DNA of 64,000 nucleotides, taken from an uncultured Actinomycetota bacterium. Lineage in GTDB: Bacteria; Actinomycetota; UBA4738; HRBIN12. The translations under genes and the position numbers were made by a program. The stretch covers positions 333,104 through 397,103 of the forward strand of contig CAWIUW010000015.1 of assembly GCA_963839395.1 (NCBI GenBank). Direction: 5' to 3'. Below the pieces are notes generated by a model. That model was not told the DNA's origin and did not search any database. It was given only the letters and a program-made list of their open reading frames with translations. Position 1 is the first letter of the stretch. Every line of letters begins with the position of its first letter. Below, piece after piece: positions 762 to 25,062 of the stretch.

Positions 762-3185
762 ATGAGTGAGGCTCCGCGACTCCGGAACTGGCGAACCGAC
801 CTGGTCATGTCGATCGCCCTGGGGGTCGCGTACTACCTAGCTGCCCAACTCAGCCTCCGACTCGCCCTCGTGGGGGAGAACATCACTCCGCTCTGGCCTC
901 CCACGGGGATCGCGCTGGTGGGGTTCCTCCTCCGCGGCCGGCGCCTGTGGCCGGGTGTGGCGATCGCTGCGTTCGCCGTCAACCTTCCGATCAGCACCTC
1001 GGGGGTGGCGGCCGCCGTGACGGCGGTCGGGAACACGCTCGCCCCGCTGGCGGCCGCCACCCTGCTGTTGCGCGTGGGATTCCGCCCCCAGCTGGACCGT
1101 CTCCGTGACGCGCTCGCGATCGTGTTCCTCGCCGCGTTGGGAGCCACCATCATCAGCGCCACGGTCGGCGCCACGACGCTGCTGGTCTCGGATGCCATCG
1201 AAGCGAGGGAGTTCTGGGGGGCCTGGTCGGTCTGGTGGGCGGGAGACGCGATGGGGATCCTCGTGGTGGCGCCGTTCCTCCTGACGCTGACGATGATCCG
1301 CTCGCATCCGGTCCCACGAGGGTGGAAGGCCGTGGAAGCGATCGCGCTCGTCGCTCGTGCTGGTCGGGATCTCGACCCTCATCGTCGTGACGGAGCTCCC
1401 GATCCCGTTCCTGCTCTTCCCGGTGCTGGGGTGGGCAGCGTGGCGTTTCCAGCAGCCCGGCGCGGCCCCCGCCGCCCTCGTCGTCTCGCTGTTCGCGACC
1501 TGGGCGGCCGTGGAGAAACGGGGGATCTTCGCCGGCCAGACGCTCTGGGAGCAGATGTTCACGCTCCAGGCGTTCAACGCCACGGTCGCGTTCATGTCCT
1601 TCTTCTTCGCGGCGGTCGTGGGCGAACGCCTCCGATCCCGGCGGGCGCTCGAGGAAGCGGCGGCAGACCTCGAGGAGCGCGTCGAGGTGCGCACGACAGA
1701 ACTCATGATCGCGAACGAGCGTCTGGCGGAGTCGCAGGAGCTCTCGCATCTCGGTTCGTGGGATTGGGACGTGGCGACGGGCGACGTGAACTGGTCCCAA
1801 CGAGATGTACCGGATCCACGGTCTGCGACCCGATTCCCCGATCACGTTCGAGCGCGTCGTCGAGTTCGCGGTGCCCGAGGATCGAGCCCGTATCCAGGCG
1901 AACGTGACGCATGCGATCGAGGAGCGGAGGGAGGTCATCCCGGACATCGAGTATCGGATCGTCCGTGAAGACGGCAGTCACGCGCGTCCTCTACGGGAAG
2001 GGGCGCGCCATCCGATCCACCGACGGTGCCGTGACACGGATGGTCGGGACGGTCCAAGACGTCACCGAGCGACGTGAGTTGGAGCGAGAGCATCGGATCG
2101 CCGACACGCTCCAGCAGGCGTTGCTTCCCGAGCGGCTCCCGCAGCTCGTCGGGATCGGTCTCGCCGCCCGGTACGTGCCCGCCGAAGAGGGCGCGGCTGC
2201 CGGCGGAGACTGGTACGACGTGATCGAGCTCCCCGACGGCCGCGTCGCCCTCGTGATCGGCGACGTCGCAGGCCACGGCACGGAGGCGGCGAGCGTCATG
2301 GGGCAGGTGCGGATGGCCGTGCGCGCCTTCAGCCTCGAGGGGCATCCCCCGAGGTTCGTGGTCGAGCGCGTGCACGACCTCCTGCGGTCCCTCTACGAAG
2401 GCGAGCAGATGGTGACGATGCTGTACCTCGTCGTGGACCCCACGACGTGGGAGGCCACGATGGTGAACGCCGGGCATCCGCCGCCTCTGTTGCTCGATGC
2501 GGCCGGCGGTGCGACCTATCTCGCGGGTCCGACCGGGTTGCCCGTCGGCCTGAACTGGAGCCTTCCGTACGAGGAATCCACGGCCCTGCTCCGGCCCGGA
2601 GCGACGCTCGTGTTGTTCACCGACGGCCTCGTCGACCGCCGAGACGTCGCCGTCGAGCAGGGCCTGGAACGACTCCTCGAGGCCGCAACGAACGGGGCCG
2701 GTGCAGACATCGATGACCTCTGCGGAGGGTTGCTCGAGACCTTGGTCCCCGCCGACGCCTCCGATGACGTCGCGATCCTCGCCGCTCGGTTCGATGCCGT
2801 TCAGGAGCGGCTCGTCCTGCACATCCCGGCGGACCCCGCGAAGCTCCGAGCCGTCCGTCGCAACATCGGCAGGTGGCTCTCCGGCCATGACGTGCCGCAG
2901 CAGGATGCGGACGACATCCTGCTTGCCAGCTCGGAAGCATGTGCGAACTCGATCGAGCACGCCTACGGTCCGGGTGAAGGATCCGTGGACATCGAGGCGA
3001 TCGCCCAGAACGGTGAGATCACGATCATCGTCCGTGACACGGGTCGATGGAGAGCGGCGCGCAACGGAGACCGGGGCCGAGGGTTGCCGCTCATCGAAGC
3101 GTGCATGGATTCATGCGACTTCACCCGCGGTCACGAAGGGACCGAGCTGCGCATGCGACGACGGGTCCCCAGGGCCACCGGATGA
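762..3185 (+). pseudogene. MASE1-PAS-PP2C (SpoIIE/RsbU-type) phosphatase-HATPase (RsbW-like) sensor, broken by three +1 frame shifts (near 1350, 1800 and 1972); may be assembly indels
   Basis: Four consecutive ORFs in frames 0/1/2/0 translate to a contiguous MASE1 membrane domain (ITPLWPPTGIALVGFLL..), a PAS domain (LGSWDWDVATGDVNWSQ / MYRIHGL..PEDRARI), a PP2C domain (GGDWYDVIELPDGRVALVIGDVAGHG) and a HATPase_c domain (GRGLPLIEACMDS). An AAGGA sits upstream of the ATG at 762. Confidence 0.7.
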
Positions 3186-4566: not shown

Positions 4567-5352
4567 ATGAACGCGATGCCACGCCGCCTCCTGCTCTTCG
4601 CCGTGACGGCCACCCTGGCCGCATGTGGGGGAGGAGCGACGGCGCCGGCGGACGTGACCCCACCGGCGGTCGCGACACCACGCTCCCGGCCGAGGCCGCC
4701 CGCCGATTTCCAGGCGTCCAGGCTGCTCGCGCGCGGCGGGACGCTCGTCGCCCTCGCGCGCGAGTCGGTACTCGGGATCCATGCGGCGCCGGGGACGGAA
4801 CGTCCGTACATGGGCCTCGACGCCGCGAATCCATGGGGGCAGCCCCTCCGGCTCCTCGTGGTCCGCGGCGCGAACGACGAGGACGGCGACGTTTGGCTCC
4901 GCATCCAGCTCCCGATCTGGCCGAACGGCCAGGCGGGCTGGGTCGCCGCCTCCGACGTGCGACTCGCCGAGGCCGACGAACGCGTCGTCGTCGATCTCTC
5001 CGAGCGGAGGCTCGTGAGGCTCCGCGAGGGCAAACCGGTCGCCCGCGTCGAGGTCGCCATCGGTTCGGCCGCGACGCCCACTCCGCCCGGGCGCTACTTC
5101 GTATGGGCGAAGGTCCGGACCGACCGCCCCTCCGGACCGTACGGGAGCTTCATCCTCGGGCTCTCCGGGTTCTCCGAAGAGATCGAGCCGTGGACGGAGT
5201 GGCCAGGTCAGCCGCGACTCGCGATCCACGGGACCGACGACCCGGCCGATGCGGGACACGCCGTGAGCAAAGGGTGCGTGCGTGTCCTGAACTCACTGCT
5301 CGGAGGGCTTCGCGACGTGCCGATGGGGACTCCCGTCCTCATCCAGCCGTAG
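4567..5352 (+). CDS. L,D-transpeptidase (YkuD domain) lipoprotein
   Basis: Signal peptide with lipobox (TLAACGGG). C-terminal HGT..S.GCVR catalytic motif. Confidence 0.8.
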   Translation: MNAMPRRLLLFAVTATLAACGGGATAPADVTPPAVATPRSRPRPPADFQASRLLARGGTLVALARESVLGIHAAPGTERPYMGLDAANPWGQPLRLLVVRGANDEDGDVWLRIQLPIWPNGQAGWVAASDVRLAEADERVVVDLSERRLVRLREGKPVARVEVAIGSAATPTPPGRYFVWAKVRTDRPSGPYGSFILGLSGFSEEIEPWTEWPGQPRLAIHGTDDPADAGHAVSKGCVRVLNSLLGGLRDVPMGTPVLIQP

Positions 5353-17076: not shown

Positions 17077-19918
17077 CTAGGGGAGGGCCACCGACCAGGC
17101 ACCCCGGCCGTGCGTGGCCGCGTAGAGCACCCGGCCCGCGTCCGACGTGTCGATCGTGAGGCCGTATGTGGCGACCGGCGGAAGCCCGGCGGCTGCCTCG
17201 ACCCACACGTTGCTGCCGTCCTCGAGTCGCAGGACGCTGAAGTCCGTCGACACGTAGACGTCACCCGTCTGGTCGTCGAACGCCACGTCGGTGATCGGCT
17301 GGTCGCCGATGTTGGCACTGATGTCCGTCCAGGTCGCGTTGCCCGTGCCCGGATGGAACGTCACCTCGAACACATGACCCGGCTGGCCGGGTGTGTACGC
17401 CTCGTACCCGGAGAACGAGATGAACGCGTGGTTCGAGTTCGTCGGGTCGATGGAGATCCCGCTCACGAACCGCTCGGGCTGTGCGGCCGAATCGATCCTC
17501 CGGTAGCTCACCTGCTGCCGGGGCGCGTTCGCGTTCTTCGAGACGAACACGCGACCGACCCGGGTCCCGGCCCAGAGCGTGCCGGTGTCGCCGCCGGACC
17601 GCTCGACCGCCACGACGTAGTTCCCGAGCTTGTCGCGGCCGTAGAACGTCGACGTCAGGTTCCCGCTCGTGCCCGAACCGATCGGCTTCCAGTTCCCGCA
17701 GGCGTGCTGGAAGGTGCCCGTGTACTCGTTGCAGGTCTCCTCGAGGAAGGCCTGCTCGCCACCGTTGTTCGAGGTGCGCCAGACGCTCTCCATCCCGGTG
17801 AACATCGCACCGCCCACGACCGGATCGGTGATGAGAGGCACGTAGAACGATCGCTGCTCGTTGCTCTTCTGGAGCGGGTCCCCGATCCAGTTCCAGCTGC
17901 CGGGAGCCCCGTCGTCGAAGCTCACGTCGGGGGTCGCGTCGAAGTAGGTGTGGACGCGGATCGAGGTGTCCTCGGCTCCGTAGCCCGACTGGCCGCCGTC
18001 TCCGTCGATCGTCTCCAACCATTCGGGGCTGCCGGAGAAGAGCCAGGTGCCGTTGTCCTGCGTGCCACCCATCAGGTCGTTGGTGGGGTCCTCCGGGTTC
18101 ACGGACAGGCTCTGGAACTGGATCGTGGCGAGCCCGTCGTTCAGCGTGGTCAGCAGCTGGGGCACCGCGCTGAGCCAGTTCTCGCAGTCCGTCAGGTCCG
18201 CACCCTCGATCGGCCTCGAGGCGCACTCGCCAGTGTCGTCCACGTAGGTCCCGTTCGTGCGGATCACGCCGCCGTCTGACCCGACGATCGCGATGTTGGG
18301 GTTGGACGCGAAGACGATCGCGTGCTGGTCGGGGTGCATGCCGAGCGGCGGGTTCTGCGCGTCGTTCGTCATGTCGGTGAACGAGACGCCCGCATCGGTC
18401 GAGCGCATCACCGCGCGCCCGTTCGACCGGCCGTTGCCACCGAACACCGGCAGCTCGTCGTAGTTCATCGCGCCGCCGATCCAGACCGTGTTGGGTTGCC
18501 CCGGCGGCGACTCCACGAACATGTCGTACCCGCACTGGAAATGGCAGAAGAAGTACGAGCCGAAGCCGTCGGTGCCGTTCGCCGGGTTGGACAGCAGCGT
18601 CCAGCCACCGTTCGTGCCCCCCGTGAGCAGGTCACCGGCGGGCACGTTGGCGTCGTCGGTGCGCCAGAGGACCGAGTAGCCCAGGTCGTCCGACGAGTCG
18701 CCCAAGTAGATGCGCGTGTCGGACCCCAGGTCGACCAGGTCGAACTCCGTCCGGTCACCGAACGTGTCGGCCGGGTGGAACGTCTGGAAGACCTGGCGGA
18801 ATTGCGTCGTCCCTTCGTTCGCGGGTGACCGACGCCACAGCCCGTAGCCGAACAACGCGACGTAGACCGTCTCCGGGTCGTTCGGGTCGAGCAGGATCCT
18901 GTTCACGCCACCCTGGAACCAGTCCACGCCTCCGGAAGCGGGTGCCGGGTTCGGGTCACGCGAGAAGACGAGGTCGAACGTCGCGCCGCCGTCGGTCGTC
19001 TCGTACAGACCGAGGGTGGGCGCGTCCGGCGGGGTCCTCCGACCGCCGTTGGCCGAGGAGGAGCCGTGACGCGCCACGGCAGTGCCGATGAAGTAGTGGT
19101 CGGGGTCGGTCGGGTCGATCGCGATCGAACCGATCGAGCGGTCCCTCGCGATCGGCACGCTCGCCGGCACCAGGGTCCACGGGCCCCCGTCGGTCGACGT
19201 GAAGAGGCCGACACCGGCCTCCGAGTCGCCCGAGCCGTTGGGTTCGCCCGTTCCCGCGAAGATCCTGTTCGGGTCGTTCGGGTCGACCGCGAGGGAGCCG
19301 ATCGAGTTCGACGTGATCCCCGCGTCGAGCGGTTGCCAGGCGGGCTCGGCTGCGAGCGCGTCCGGCGCGTGCCACACGCCTCCGCCCGCCGCACCGACCC
19401 AGATCTCGCAGTCGCCCGGCACGCACGTCGGTGAGATCGCCATCGATGTCACGCGACCGGAGTTCTGTGTCGCTCGATCCGTGTAGGTCGCGATCGCAGG
19501 AACCGTCGGCGTCACGGGGCCGAGCTCTTGCCATCCGGCAACGAGCGGGGCGCTCAGACCGGTGCGTGCCGACGGGATCGCCGCGGCGGCGGCGATGGCC
19601 TTCTTGACTTGCTTGAAGCGGATCGTTGCCCGGGGGATCGCGCGGTTCTCGTAGGCCTCAGCGGCCGGACCCCCGAAGCGCTCGGCCTCGCCGCTCTCGC
19701 CGATCTTCTCGCGGACCACGAGGATCGGAAGTTGCCGGTCGCCGCGCAGCGCGATCTCGCGGAGACTCGCCTCCTCCTCGCCCTCGCCTCTCGCGCTCAC
19801 CCGCTCGGTTCTGGAACTGGCTGGGTGTGCTCGTGCTCCATATCACCACGGCGAGCAGCGTGAGCGCGGCGAGAACGGTGATGGCGGTCCGGACGTGGGT
19901 GCGGAGGCGCTTCGACAT
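17077..19918 (-). CDS. secreted BNR/Asp-box repeat protein (sialidase/glycosyl-hydrolase-like beta-propeller); signal peptide in a different frame from the body (apparent indel near 19810-19830)
   Basis: Repeated S-x-D-x-G-x-(T/S)-(W/F) motifs (FTSTDGGPWT, YETTDGGATF, MRSTDAGVSF). The N-terminal MSKRLRTHVRTAITVLAALTLLAVVIW signal peptide ORF (19918 downward) joins the 907-aa body only after a 1-nt shift. Confidence 0.7.
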
Positions 19919-20050: not shown

Positions 20051-20545
20051 GTGGAGAGGCCGCAGGTCGGCGTGATCATGGGCTCCCGCTCCGACTGGGA
20101 GACGATGAAGCACTGCTGCGACACCCTCGAGGACCTCGGGGTGCGCTTCGAGACGAAGGTCGTGTCGGCTCACCGCACGCCCGAGCTCATGGTCGAGTAC
20201 GCGACGTCGGCCGCGGACCGCGGCTTGCGCGTGATCGTCGCGGGGGCGGGTGGCGCAGCGCACCTCCCCGGGATGACCGCGGCGAACACCCACCTTCCCG
20301 TCCTCGGCGTCCCGATCGAGTCGAAGGCGCTGAAGGGGATGGACTCGCTCCTGTCGATCGTGCAGATGCCGGCGGGCGTGCCGGTCGGCACGCTCGCGAT
20401 CGGCGTGAGCGGGGCGGTGAACGCGGGACTGCTCGCCGCCGAGATCGTCGCGCTCGCGGACGAGCACGTCCGCGAGCAGCTCCTGAAGTTCCGTGAGGTC
20501 CAGACGGAGAGCGTGGTAGCCCATCCCGATCCCGACGAGCGGTGA
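20051..20545 (+). CDS. purE: N5-carboxyaminoimidazole ribonucleotide mutase
   Basis: [25 protein letters not shown], a canonical PurE. Confidence 0.9.
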
Positions 20546-21642
20546 CGCTCGTCGGGATCGTTGGCGGCGGCCAGCTCGGCATGATGCTGGCCGAGGCGGG
20601 AGCCCGCATCGGGATCGAGTGCCTCACGTTGGATCCCGCGCCGGACTCGCCGGCGTCCCGCGTCGCTCCGGCGATCGTGGGTACCTACGACGACGAGGGC
20701 GCTCTGGCCGAGCTTGCCGCCGCCGCAGACGTCGTCACCTACGAGTTCGAGAACGTCCCGGTCGCGTCGGCGCGATTCCTCGCGGAGCGAGTCGACGTGT
20801 TCCCGCCGCCCGAGTCATTGGAGTTCGCCCAGGACCGGGTGCTCGAGAAGACCTTGTTCGAAGCGGTCGGCCTGGCCGTGGCCCCGTTCTCGGCCGTGTC
20901 CTCCCGCGATGAACTGGCCGAAGCGCTCGAGGTGATCGGCGTGCCGAGCGTGCTGAAGACCCGGCGACTCGGCTACGACGGGAAGGGGCAGGCCCGCTTG
21001 GCGAGCGTGGACGTGGCGGATGATGCATGGCTCGCCGTCGGGGAGGTGCCCTCGATCCTCGAGTCGTTCGTGCCCTTCGAACGCGAACTGTCGATCCTCG
21101 GGGTGCGCGGCCGCGACGGTCGTGCGGCGTTCTATCCACTCGTTGAGAACGTCCATCGCGATGGGATCCTCCGCGTCTCCACCGCGCCGGCCCTCGGGGT
21201 GACCGCGGAGCTCCAGGCCACGGCGGAGCGCTACGCGCTCGCGGTGATGGAGCGGCTCGGCCACGTCGGCGTCCTCGCGATCGAGCTGTTCCAGGTGGGG
21301 GAGGACCTCTTCGGCAACGAGATGGCCCCCCGCGTCCACAACTCCGGTCACTGGACGATCGAGGGCGCGGCGACGTCCCAGTTCGAGAACCATCTGCGGG
21401 CGATCTGCGGGATCGAGCTCGGTCCGACGTCCCTTTCGGCCTACAGCGGCATGGTGAACATCATCGGCTGGGTCCCGCCGGAGAGCTCGTTCGAGCTCGG
21501 ACCCCAGGTTCACCTTCACCTGTACGGCAAGGAATCTCGCCCGGGACGCAAGCTGGGACACGTTACCGTCATCGGACCCGACGCGGATACCCGTGATCGG
21601 GTATTAGGGAGGGTCACCCGAACGGCCGACAACCATTCATAG
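20542..21642 (+). CDS. purK: N5-carboxyaminoimidazole ribonucleotide synthase
   Basis: ATP-grasp fold. The GTGA overlap with purE is typical of the purEK operon. Confidence 0.9.
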
Positions 21643-21912
21643 ATGGCATACCTCACCTGCCCCGACTGCCGGATGCCCTCCCCAGTGGAGGACAGCGCGA
21701 TCTCCTACCGCTGCTTCTCGTGTGCGGCGGACATCAGGTTCGAGGCGTGCCACAAGTGCGAGTACCCACAGGCGATCCCCTCGCGCTGGTTCGGCGCCTT
21801 CACGTGCGGCAAGTGCGAGACGAAGGTGGACATCCCACGGCAGCGTCTCTACAGCACCTCGGTCAAGGCTCGCTTCGTGAAGGGCTACGGCCACACGTAT
21901 CCGCGCTTCTAG
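21643..21912 (+). CDS. small double zinc-ribbon protein (four CxxC pairs), hypothetical
   Basis: 89 aa. CPDC..CFSC..CHKC..CGKC. Good GC3 codon bias. The ATG lies directly after the purK stop. Confidence 0.55.
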   Translation: MAYLTCPDCRMPSPVEDSAISYRCFSCAADIRFEACHKCEYPQAIPSRWFGAFTCGKCETKVDIPRQRLYSTSVKARFVKGYGHTYPRF

Positions 21913-21924
21913 TGCGCCGACGCC

Positions 21925-22107
21925 TCAGCTCTTGGCGGGCTTGCCGGCTCGCTCGCCGTCGCTTCCGCCGGGCGCGGGCTTCGGGCAGACCTGATGTTTC
22001 GCCCTCTGGTCCGCACTGGACCAGAGGATGCGATCGCCCGGCCTGATGTCCCCGCCACACCGCAAGCACTTGGTCGCGTAGCTCGCCGTGCGTTGAAAGA
22101 CCGCCAC
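21925..22107 (-). CDS. small Cys-containing protein (CLRCGG..HQVC), hypothetical
   Basis: 60 aa. A GTG start sits 5 nt downstream of AAGGGGGA. In tandem downstream of the Lys-rich gene. Confidence 0.35.
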   Translation of the reverse strand: MAVFQRTASYATKCLRCGGDIRPGDRILWSSADQRAKHQVCPKPAPGGSDGERAGKPAKS

Positions 22108-22187
22108 CGGTTCCCCCTTCGCGCTCAGCCTATCGTCATCGGGTCGCCGACGGGTGAGCGTCCTGCGGATCGAAGGAGCGGCACGGG

Positions 22188-22493
22188 CTACTTGCCGTTC
22201 GCCTTCCCGGTCCTCTCGGAGACGGCCTTCACTGCCTCCTTGGAGACGGTCTTCACCGCCGCGGTCACGGCCTTCGCGGCTGTCTTCGTCGCCGTCTTCG
22301 TCTCTCCCTCTTTCTCCACGACGTCGAGGATCTTCTTCAGCTTGCTGTGCGCCTTCTTCCCGGTCTGCCCGGTCTTCGCGCTGACGACGATCGGCGGGAG
22401 ATCGGCACCGTCGAAGACGAGCGTGATGTCGTTGGAGTTCTCGACGATCTGGACCTGGAAGCGCGCGGTCCGTTTACCTGCCTTCTTCTTCAT
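22188..22493 (-). CDS. small basic protein with Lys/Ala-rich (histone H1/Hlp-like) C-terminal tail, hypothetical nucleoid-associated protein
   Basis: AGGAGG RBS 6 nt upstream of ATG. Excellent codon bias. The tail is TKTATKTAAKAVTAAVKTVSKEAVKAVSERTGKANGK. Confidence 0.7.
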   Translation of the reverse strand: MKKKAGKRTARFQVQIVENSNDITLVFDGADLPPIVVSAKTGQTGKKAHSKLKKILDVVEKEGETKTATKTAAKAVTAAVKTVSKEAVKAVSERTGKANGK

Positions 22494-22582
22494 CTGCAGC
22501 CTCCTCTGATCCTCAACCTAGTCACTTGAGCGCCGCTCGTCAGAGATCTCGCTCGGTCAGCTACTTCAGGGCGCTCGTCACG

Positions 22583-22655
22583 CGCGCCGGGCAGGATTCG
22601 AACCTGCGACCTGAGGATTAGAAGTCCCCTGCTCTATCCCCTGAGCTACCGGCGC
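22583..22655 (-). tRNA. tRNA-Arg (anticodon UCU)
   Basis: GCGCCGGTAGCTCAGGGGATAGAGCAGGGGACTTCTAATCCTCAGGTCGCAGGTTCGAATCCTGCCCGGCGCG. Confidence 0.9.
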
Positions 22656-22709
22656 CGACGTCAAGCGTACGCGGAGCGAGCGGGTCTGGGTTAGATGAGC
22701 TGGGAGAAC

Positions 22710-23024
22710 CTAGGAGGCGTAGCCCGCCTTCTGTCGCACGAGCTCCTGGAGTCCGATCACGCTCGGAGACTCGATCCTCTCGGCATCCCGAAGGAGTGCC
22801 CGAAGGGACCCGAACCGTGTCCTCGCCCCGACCCTCGCCGAGTTGGTCAATTGTCTGACCTGGTCGAGTCGAACGACGGCCATGTCACCTCGCTGTTCGA
22901 TCTCGATCGAGCCAACGTCCGACCAATGTTCGATCGTCGCGACATCCACGTCGACCAATCGAGCAGCTGCCTCGACCGTCACCGACGCGTACTTGCCCAA
23001 GGTTCGTTCGAATCCATCCGTCAT
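22710..23024 (-). CDS. excisionase/MerR-superfamily helix-turn-helix DNA-binding protein
   Basis: VTVEAAARLVDVDVATIEHWSDVGSIEIEQRGDMAVVRLDQV fits the excisionase-family HTH pattern. Codon usage is slightly less GC3-biased than its neighbours. Confidence 0.5.
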   Translation of the reverse strand: MTDGFERTLGKYASVTVEAAARLVDVDVATIEHWSDVGSIEIEQRGDMAVVRLDQVRQLTNSARVGARTRFGSLRALLRDAERIESPSVIGLQELVRQKAGYAS

Positions 23025-23325
23025 GGCCGAACCATAGGGCAGGGGCGACCGGCACCACATCGGCCTTCGGGTCATCCTTCCCACCCGCCGGATGCCAGCG
23101 CGGGTAGCTCAACGTGGCCATGCCCGGACGGGGAAACGCAGCGCGTCGTGCGATGACGGGGTCGAAAAGCGGGTGACGGGGATCGGAATCCGCATCACCA
23201 GTTTGGACGGTGAGCCCATGCGACATCCTCGGCTGACCGCTCGGACGATGGCTCATCAGCGAGGTGTACAGTCCCGGCCGTGCGCGAGAGCTACGGCACG
23301 AAGTTGGACCGGCGGGGTCGTTGCC

Positions 23326-23961
23326 GTGAGCGATGAGCAGTTCCTCAACAGCTATCACAACGCGAGTACGCCTCCATCACCGGACGTGCCCGCCGACCTG
23401 GCGAACTTCATGCTCGCCGCGGATCCGGTCCTCGCGCAGGCGGCCGAACTTGCGAGGGTGATCACCCGTTCGCATCAGGGCGCCGCGACACACCTGATCG
23501 GCGAAGGGTGGGCGCACGCTCGGAAGTACTTCTCGCTCTCGGAGAAGTACGCCTCGTGGGCCGACTATCACTCGCCTGCGAAAGGTGTCGGGATCCACGC
23601 ATACGCCCACAAGGTGGACCGGCCGCTGCGACTGACGGATGAAGAGCTGCGGGCGCATCCCGAGTGGCGAAACTTCGGCGACGAGGTCGACGATCATCCC
23701 CCGATGCGGGGCTGGTTGGCGGTCCCGCTGATCGGAGCCGACGGCGAGAACTACGGCTTCATCCAGGCATCCGACCGGCTGGATGGGGACTTCACCGAAC
23801 AAGACGAAGCCAACCTCGCGAGGCTGGCGACCCTCACTGCAACCGCGCTCGACGCGTTGGCCCAGGTCCACCTACCGGAGTACCGGGCGAAGATCGCTTC
23901 TGCGCCTCCGAACGATCCGAACCTCGGCAAGGGGGAGCGAGGCCGCATCCGGGCTGGATGA
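23326..23961 (+). CDS. GAF-domain protein
   Basis: GWLAVPLIGADGENYGFIQASDRLDGDFTEQDEANLARLA. GTG start at 23326. Confidence 0.6.
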   Translation: MSDEQFLNSYHNASTPPSPDVPADLANFMLAADPVLAQAAELARVITRSHQGAATHLIGEGWAHARKYFSLSEKYASWADYHSPAKGVGIHAYAHKVDRPLRLTDEELRAHPEWRNFGDEVDDHPPMRGWLAVPLIGADGENYGFIQASDRLDGDFTEQDEANLARLATLTATALDALAQVHLPEYRAKIASAPPNDPNLGKGERGRIRAG

Positions 23962-24054
23962 GACTGGGAAACGGGGCGGATCGACGGGAACCGATGGCAA
24001 TGGTGAGCCCAGCCAAAGGGAGCCGTGACCCGCGGAGATGGCGCTGACGTGAAG

Positions 24055-24128
<74 letters not shown>

Positions 24129-24172: not shown

Positions 24173-24601
24173 TCAGGGAGCCAGCCACGAGAAGGGCTCG
24201 CCGGGCACGTTCCGCAGGACCCAGAACAGTCCGAACGCGACCCCGATCGCCCAGCTAGCCCACCGAGGGGCGCTCCGGACATGGGGAGGATGCCGCCCAC
24301 CGATCCCCGCGAGGCCCACCGACAGCCACGCGGCGACCAGCATCGGGACGAAGAGCACCGTCATCAGGTTGAAGTCGATGGCGGATCGAAGGTCGGCGTG
24401 CAGCAAGGCATGGAGACACCTCAGCGTGCCGCACCCGGGGCAGTACAGGCCGGTCGCCGCGTAGAAAGGACAGACGGGGAAGGCCGTCGCTTCGCTGGGA
24501 TCGACCACGTGGAGCACGACGGCGAACGCGAGGCCGCCGACGAAGAGCGTCGCGTCTCGAACACGAGAGGGTGCGAGCGCGGATAGACCTCCGGGATCCA
24601 T
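24173..24601 (-). CDS. DUF2752-family membrane protein
   Basis: CPFYAATGLYCPGCGTLRC motif plus hydrophobic helices. AGGAG RBS 7 nt upstream. Confidence 0.7.
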   Translation of the reverse strand: MDPGGLSALAPSRVRDATLFVGGLAFAVVLHVVDPSEATAFPVCPFYAATGLYCPGCGTLRCLHALLHADLRSAIDFNLMTVLFVPMLVAAWLSVGLAGIGGRHPPHVRSAPRWASWAIGVAFGLFWVLRNVPGEPFSWLAP

Positions 24602-24609
24602 GCCGGCTC

Positions 24610-25062
24610 CTACGTGAACGTTGGGGAGCTGTTCGTCCCGACGGATCCAGCGACCACGGCGATCCCGACGAGGATCCCGCCCACCGCGCTGATGATGCAC
24701 CACATCTTGGCCTTGCCGGAGGAATCCATCGCGCCGGCGACGTCGCCCACCGCGAGCTTGTTGCTGACCTGCGTCGCGTAGACGATCGCGACGATGCCCG
24801 TCGGGAGGAAACAGAGGAGCGTCACGAGGATCGCCCACACGAGGTAGGTCGGAACGGAAGCAGCAGGGGTCGCCGGCGTCCGTGGGAAGGGAGTGGCGAG
24901 TCCCTGACCGGGCATCGGAGGAGCGGGAGGGAGCCCGGACTCATCGGCCGGTGGTGGGTTCTGCGATCGCTCCCAGGTCTGACCGATGTCGTTCCAACGG
25001 AGCCACGTCCCATCGGGCTGTTGCTGCCACCAGAGGCCGTTCCTGAAGACCGGTTCGCTCAC
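24610..25062 (-). CDS. CD225/dispanin (IFITM-like) family membrane protein with Pro-rich N-terminus
   Basis: LVWAILVTLLCFLPTGIVAIVYATQVSNKLAVGDVAGAMDSSGKAKMWCIISAVGGIL. GGAGGAAGGAG RBS upstream of the GTG at 25062. Confidence 0.7.
   Translation of the reverse strand: MSEPVFRNGLWWQQQPDGTWLRWNDIGQTWERSQNPPPADESGLPPAPPMPGQGLATPFPRTPATPAASVPTYLVWAILVTLLCFLPTGIVAIVYATQVSNKLAVGDVAGAMDSSGKAKMWCIISAVGGILVGIAVVAGSVGTNSSPTFT

Follow-up and report, generated by a model that had tools for sequence, protein, structure and literature searches.

Tails of the HupB/Hlp type are defined by repeated PAKK and KAAK motifs, are long and of low complexity, and follow an N-terminal domain of the HU fold (PMC5676037), and Ku carries an H1-like lysine/alanine tail of the same PAKK/KAAK type (PMC3553676). 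Here, we analyzed three adjacent small genes in a 64-kb stretch of DNA (called the window; coordinates are positions in it) from an uncultured Actinomycetota bacterium (GenBank assembly GCA_963839395.1, contig CAWIUW010000015.1). They encode a double zinc-ribbon protein of 89 amino acids (aa), a cysteine-containing protein of 60 aa (C60) and a basic protein of 101 aa (B101), and an initial annotation had proposed them as a nucleoid or stress module in which B101 is histone-like with an Hlp/H1-type tail. Like HupB (Hlp, MDP1), Ku, TopA and HbhA, B101 is a small, basic actinobacterial protein with a Lys/Ala-rich C-terminal part, and a contact between its lysines and the DNA backbone is conceivable. 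Unlike HupB, it has no HU/IHF domain (Pfam Bac_DNA_binding), and its tail is a nearly invariant helix of fixed length (29 residues), rich in Thr and Val, with an 11-residue periodicity. From comparison with relatives, the interval is probably where a housekeeping operon meets a plastic slot next to a tRNA gene, and not a functional three-gene module.

Distribution of the three genes across related loci

The 89-aa gene (21643-21912, forward strand) begins at the first base after the TAG of purK. C60 (21925-22107, reverse strand, GTG start) is convergent to it with 12 nucleotides (nt) between them, and B101 (22188-22493, reverse strand) lies 80 nt upstream of C60. The variable slot is bounded by tRNA-Arg(TCT) (22582-22655, reverse strand; detected by ARAGORN and Rfam), upstream of B101 on the same strand. 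All open reading frames (ORFs) of the initial annotation were found where it had placed them, the tRNA gene included.

All three genes are real. They are conserved as coding sequences, with ratios of non-synonymous to synonymous substitution (dN/dS, omega) well below 1, and conservation tracks the minus-strand frames. A 171-aa ORF that overlaps them on the other strand (21994-22509) is the usual antisense artefact of high-GC DNA. The three genes belong to no described family, as had been suspected: scans of the three proteins against Pfam, NCBIfam, PHROGs and PADLOC gave nothing above threshold, nor did scans of 24 B101-family members against Pfam, NCBIfam and PHROGs. Sequence and profile searches of the Protein Data Bank (PDB) returned only noise, none of the three has a relative in the phage and plasmid collections, and B101 in particular matches no ribosomal or HU family. 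All three proteins are basic (isoelectric point, pI, 8.8-10.1).

Co-occurrence was summarized over 71 related loci (labelled L001 etc.), in which the genes were mapped by tblastn. The 89-aa gene, B101 and C60 vary independently across these loci, and B101 is found elsewhere in the genome with neither partner gene in 10 of them. Because the three genes show three different evolutionary behaviours, they do not form a module. In summary, the observation behind the initial annotation is confirmed, and its interpretation is partly supported: the genes are real orphans and B101 may bind nucleic acid, whereas most of the rest, namely the Hlp-like tail and the three-gene module, is not supported. Neither of the results named beforehand as refuting it (small ORFs not conserved as coding, or a ribosomal or HU match of B101) was obtained.

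By its position, the 89-aa gene appears to be a conserved final member of the purine operon purE/purK. In the window, purE (20051-20545, forward strand; assigned by Pfam) is followed by purK (20542-21642, forward strand; N5-CAIR synthetase with the Pfam domains RS_preATP-grasp-like, ATP-grasp and PurK_C), whose first 4 nt overlap the end of purE. Among the 52 loci that hold the start of the 89-aa gene, it is directly downstream of purK in 40 and of purE in 12, and the gap is at most 13 nt in 47 and at most 79 nt in 51, the sole exception being a locus with a 2.5-kb insertion in between. This arrangement, on the same strand and immediately 3' of purE/purK, is kept across lineages, while the other neighbours of the gene change. 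Under the gene-neighbourhood principle, such persistent adjacency usually marks functional coupling.

The four CxxC pairs of the 89-aa protein had been noted correctly: CPDC/CFSC and CHKC/CGKC form two tandem CxxC-Xn-CxxC ribbons, with all eight cysteines invariant in 11 sequences at identities down to 43%, and the omega of the gene is 0.02-0.07. The protein has the double CxxC ribbons of DZR (PF12773), yet its score of 17.9 bits (E = 0.0034) falls short of the gathering threshold of that family, which is 27.3. Weak similarities were found only to generic zinc ribbons (DZR, S27e, RING-like; E 0.003-0.3), and the match to ribosomal S27e in PDB reaches only E = 0.3. The fixed place after purE/purK is a feature of the 89-aa gene and not of DZR or S27e. 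No purine-related domain was found in the protein, and a literature search combining purE, purK and zinc ribbon gave no paper.

C60 had been described as a Cys protein, which is correct but incomplete, for it is a CCHC protein: 15 homologues with 72-89% identity keep C14, C17, H38 and C41 invariant. Its core (residues 3-42) is nearly invariant, its Pro/Gly/charged tail varies, and its omega is 0.17-0.34. A Shine-Dalgarno-like AAGGGGGA (22112-22119, reverse strand), read directly from the sequence, lies 4 nt upstream of the GTG. C60 and B101 had been called an operon-like pair, and they are indeed adjacent on one strand here; C60 also follows B101 in L005 and L006. However, each gene is found without the other in relatives. 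C60 is present without B101 in L003, L004 and L043 (in L041 it also lacks a B101 match, but the contig stops 23 nt past C60), and B101 is present without C60 in L001, L013, L014, L017 and others. In 14 other loci, the slot is filled by C75, a protein of about 75 aa with a CxxC...CxxC pattern, which is unrelated to C60 and has only the CLRCGG knuckle in common with it. Generally, the slot contains C60, C75, larger inserts or nothing, and C60 appears to be a swappable accessory gene for a CCHC zinc knuckle or ribbon.

In L005, a 1.8-kb insert between the tRNA gene and B101 is bracketed by two identical 29-nt copies of the tRNA-Arg 3' end in direct orientation (3073-3101 and 4915-4943 of that locus). 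The insert encodes ANTAR- and STAS-type regulators and no integrase, and as the second repeat copy is upstream of B101, B101 is outside the insert. Similar cargo (DUF6328, ANTAR, STAS) is held by L004. In the window, the tRNA-Arg 3' end occurs only once, with no direct repeat. The tRNA-Arg gene thus appears, from these sequences, to be an integration site in relatives of this lineage.

Domain anatomy and expression signals of B101

We identified 92 homologues of B101 with 67-98% identity, all from metagenome-assembled genomes (MAGs) of uncultured Actinomycetota. Among 185,579 species genomes, B101 is carried at 13 loci, again all in such MAGs, and the hosts are soil Actinomycetota. There are two separate conserved contexts. 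One is tRNA-Arg/purK, as in the window; in the other, from a sister lineage, B101 is divergent from dgt (HD)-dnaG-rpoD, and in the three Pfam-annotated loci of this context (L018-L020) it is convergent with a DUF218 gene. One MAG holds two copies (L009, L011). In tblastn, the B101 copies at L014:5001-5387 and L015:5001-5302 are split between frames, owing either to frameshifts in pseudogenes or to errors in the assembly of long reads. The omega of the whole gene is 0.21-0.37.

B101 has a pI of 10.1, a net charge of +12, and 19 lysines against 3 arginines in a proteome that prefers arginine (purK has 5 Lys and 25 Arg). Residues 1-64 (22302-22493, reverse strand) comprise a basic N-terminal arm (MKKKAGKRTARF, +6) and a beta-beta-beta-alpha domain with a conserved TGxSGxKAHxKL loop and helix cap. 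When distant relatives were aligned, AlphaFold2 modelled this part with a confidence score (pLDDT) of 82, as a disordered basic arm, strands at 14-18, 22-27 and 35-38, the TGxSGxKA loop, and a helix at 48-62. The structure prediction that the initial annotation had called for therefore gives a beta3-alpha fold, with no match in PDB or in viral structure models. The omega of this domain is 0.41.

An exhaustive profile search over 1.84 billion cluster representatives found 36 proteins at E<=0.001, one of them from a Nocardioidaceae MAG. Most are 58-89 aa long and match positions 1-63 only. Since these relatives carry the N-terminal domain alone, B101 can be regarded as a small family-specific domain with an added C-terminal part. 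The stand-alone relatives (about 65 aa) are roughly neutral with acidic C-termini, so the basicity of B101 comes from its N-terminal arm (+6) and its tail (+7). The repeated profile matches to the very long proteins P0135, P0153 and P0156 were due to repeat sequences, and these proteins were rejected as relatives. A metagenomic protein of 40 aa (P0147, MKTKKGKRTAHFAVTAAVKTVSKEAVKAVSDRTGNGSSEK) joins the basic arm straight to the tail helix, the whole beta3-alpha domain being deleted in frame.

The domain resembles the double-stranded RNA-binding domain (dsRBD) in having three beta-strands and then a helix whose N-terminus bears a Gly/Ser/Lys-Lys-x-Ala motif, and the dsRBD counterpart of TGQTGKKAH in B101 is GxGxSKKxAK. 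Unlike the alpha-beta3-alpha dsRBD, the B101 model has no N-terminal helix. A dsRBD reading of the GxSGKKA motif was rejected: in a comparison with four manually entered dsRBD sequences, hhalign gave a probability of 0.8%, and no Pfam dsrm match was found in any of the 24 family members.

The tail (residues 65-93; 22215-22301, reverse strand) is a conserved amphipathic Lys/Ala/Val/Thr helix of two tandem hendecads, KTAAKAVTAAV and KTVSKEAVKAV. Its sequence (TKTATKTAAKAVTAAVKTVSKEAVKAVSE) contains no proline, no PAKK and no KAAK, its length is fixed, and 22 columns are invariant among 32 sequences. No other part of B101 is as constrained: omega is 0.10 here against 0.41 in the N-terminal domain, and since dS is normal (0.55), selection works at the level of the protein rather than of the DNA. 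At 98.2 degrees (11/3 periodicity), the hydrophobic moment peaks at 0.44, compared with 0.36 at 100 degrees and 0.21 at 102.9 degrees, the heptad angle. AlphaFold2 predicts, at low confidence, a single long helix (66-97) that folds back onto the helix of the domain. The Hlp/H1 resemblance had been read from the tail, and on the above features the tail does not look Hlp/H1-like.

In its 11/3 periodicity, its lysines flanking a small apolar face and its tandem KT..K....AV units, the tail is like alpha-synuclein, perilipins and group-3 LEA proteins (Pfam LEA_4). It differs from these 11-mer repeat proteins in having only about 2.6 units, in its very high constraint and in being joined to a folded beta3-alpha domain. 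The tail alone has no Pfam match at E<=10, with no LEA, synuclein or apolipoprotein signal.

A Shine-Dalgarno sequence GAGGAGG (22500-22506, reverse strand), 6 nt before the ATG of B101, is kept in all orthologous upstream regions and bears out the strong ribosome-binding site noted at first. The "optimal codons" cited beside it are uninformative, because the GC content at third codon positions of B101 (0.91) is the same as that of its neighbours (0.87-0.95 in purK, purE and a neighbouring 907-aa gene). Further upstream is a promoter-like element (22515-22543, reverse strand), consisting of CTGACG (22538-22543), a 17-nt spacer and TAGGTT (22515-22520). The CTGACG and GACTAGGTT blocks are common to five orthologous loci, and a second lineage has a different conserved upstream block, TGCGCTAGCGT, with the same strong Shine-Dalgarno sequence. 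Because these upstream blocks are conserved, a promoter between the tRNA gene and B101 is supported, and we infer that B101 has its own. Rfam scans found only tRNAs, and folding of the intergenic spacers gave no unusually stable RNA (z-scores -0.2 to +1.4).

Flanking genes of the interval

Upstream of tRNA-Arg is an orphan 124-aa gene, HTH124 (22710-23084, reverse strand), which serves as a synteny anchor and is outside the small-protein set. It has a helix-turn-helix-looking segment (VTVEAAARLVDVDVATIEHW), no Pfam match at E<=0.001, and orthologues with 64-82% identity in the same place; in all close relatives it sits between tRNA-Gly and tRNA-Arg. The tRNA-Gly(TCC) gene (24054-24125) is flanked by genes for a GAF-domain protein (23092-23961, forward strand) and a DUF2752 protein (24173-24838, reverse strand), and the order tRNA-Pro, tRNA-Gly, tRNA-Arg is kept in relatives. 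On the other side, the neighbour of purE (17077-19800, reverse strand) encodes an acidic 907-aa protein (pI 4.4) with no Pfam match at E<=0.001. Its position is occupied in L003 by a 954-aa gene, also with no Pfam matches. The GC content drops to 0.61-0.66 over 21400-23200, which covers the small genes and tRNAs, from a level of about 0.70 in purE, purK and the DNA upstream of them.

Possible functions of B101

B101 is probably an independent monocistronic gene, with its own conserved promoter-like element and strong ribosome-binding site. Its product combines the family-specific beta3-alpha domain, which occurs alone in other Actinomycetota, with the basic N-terminal arm and the nearly invariant 11-residue-periodic C-terminal helix. 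As our preferred but tentative reading, B101 would be a small basic protein of high abundance, in contact with the phosphates of nucleic acids and using the helix to oligomerise or dock. The N-terminal arm, the helix cap at TGxSGKKAH and the lysine-bearing face of the helix would supply the phosphate contacts, and nucleic-acid binding by B101 is possible.

Several results weigh against the above reading of B101 and of the interval. No fold known to bind DNA or RNA was recognised in the N-terminal domain, and because its stand-alone relatives are nearly neutral, nucleic-acid binding is not obvious for the domain itself. The full-length model has a pLDDT of only 42-68 over the tail. A scan for generic promoter and terminator consensus sequences called nothing, so that the proposed promoter is read from conservation only. 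Moreover, some small zinc-ribbon gene follows B101 in 13 of about 19 loci of the purK context, which would allow a loose functional pairing.

A somewhat doubtful alternative is that B101 is a protein-binding adaptor or regulator, whose helix docks one conserved partner (RNA polymerase, primase, ribosome or protease) while the N-terminal domain acts as the effector that it shares with the stand-alone family. The extreme position-by-position constraint on the helix would suit such docking, the near-neutral charge of the domain family elsewhere fits protein-protein contacts better than charge-driven binding, and the second conserved context lies beside dgt-dnaG-rpoD. However, no partner gene is consistently adjacent to B101, and the adjacency to dgt-dnaG-rpoD is divergent and seen in one lineage only.

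It is unlikely that B101 binds membranes or lipid surfaces or protects against desiccation, with the tail helix lying flat on anionic membranes or folding on drying and the protein playing no part in nucleic-acid binding. The peak of the hydrophobic moment at the 11/3 angle, the apolar face, on which Lys borders the small residues Ala, Val and Thr, and the two tandem hendecads of the form KTxxKxxxxAV all agree with this explanation, and drying would be relevant to the soil Actinomycetota that carry the gene. Surface-seeking helices tolerate substitution, and near-invariance is unusual for them; in B101, every tail position is nearly invariant, the polar face included. The small number of repeats and the lack of any LEA, synuclein or apolipoprotein signal count against it as well, and the tail-less relatives imply that the domain functions without the tail.

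The L005 repeat and the GC content, which dips to 0.61-0.64 against about 0.70 nearby, raise the question of whether a mobile element that integrated at tRNA-Arg brought in B101 and C60 as its cargo, their place beside purK being accidental. We consider this quite improbable, as the tRNA 3' end is not duplicated in the window, the L005 repeat leaves B101 outside the insert, the promoter block and position of B101 are kept in two chromosomal contexts, and phage and plasmid searches gave no match; no integrase was seen nearby in a search that was not exhaustive. For C60 alone, a mobile-cargo origin is plausible.

Least of all do we favour the nucleoid or stress module with the two Cys proteins as partners of a histone-like B101, which is very improbable: that the genes are small, basic, orphan and adjacent, that B101 is rich in lysine and favourably placed to be expressed, and that a small zinc-ribbon gene often follows it are outweighed by the contradicting co-occurrence pattern, the loci where B101 has neither partner, the lack of an HU/IHF domain, and a tail that is the most constrained segment of the protein rather than a drifting low-complexity one.

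In summary, B101 defines a small domain, for which Pfam, NCBIfam, PDB and viral structure models offer no detectable relative, and carries an unusually constrained amphipathic helix. The adjacency of small orphan genes in this interval is a warning against reading such adjacency as a module, for comparison with relatives dissolved the apparent cluster. B101 is a candidate abundant protein of uncultured soil Actinomycetota.
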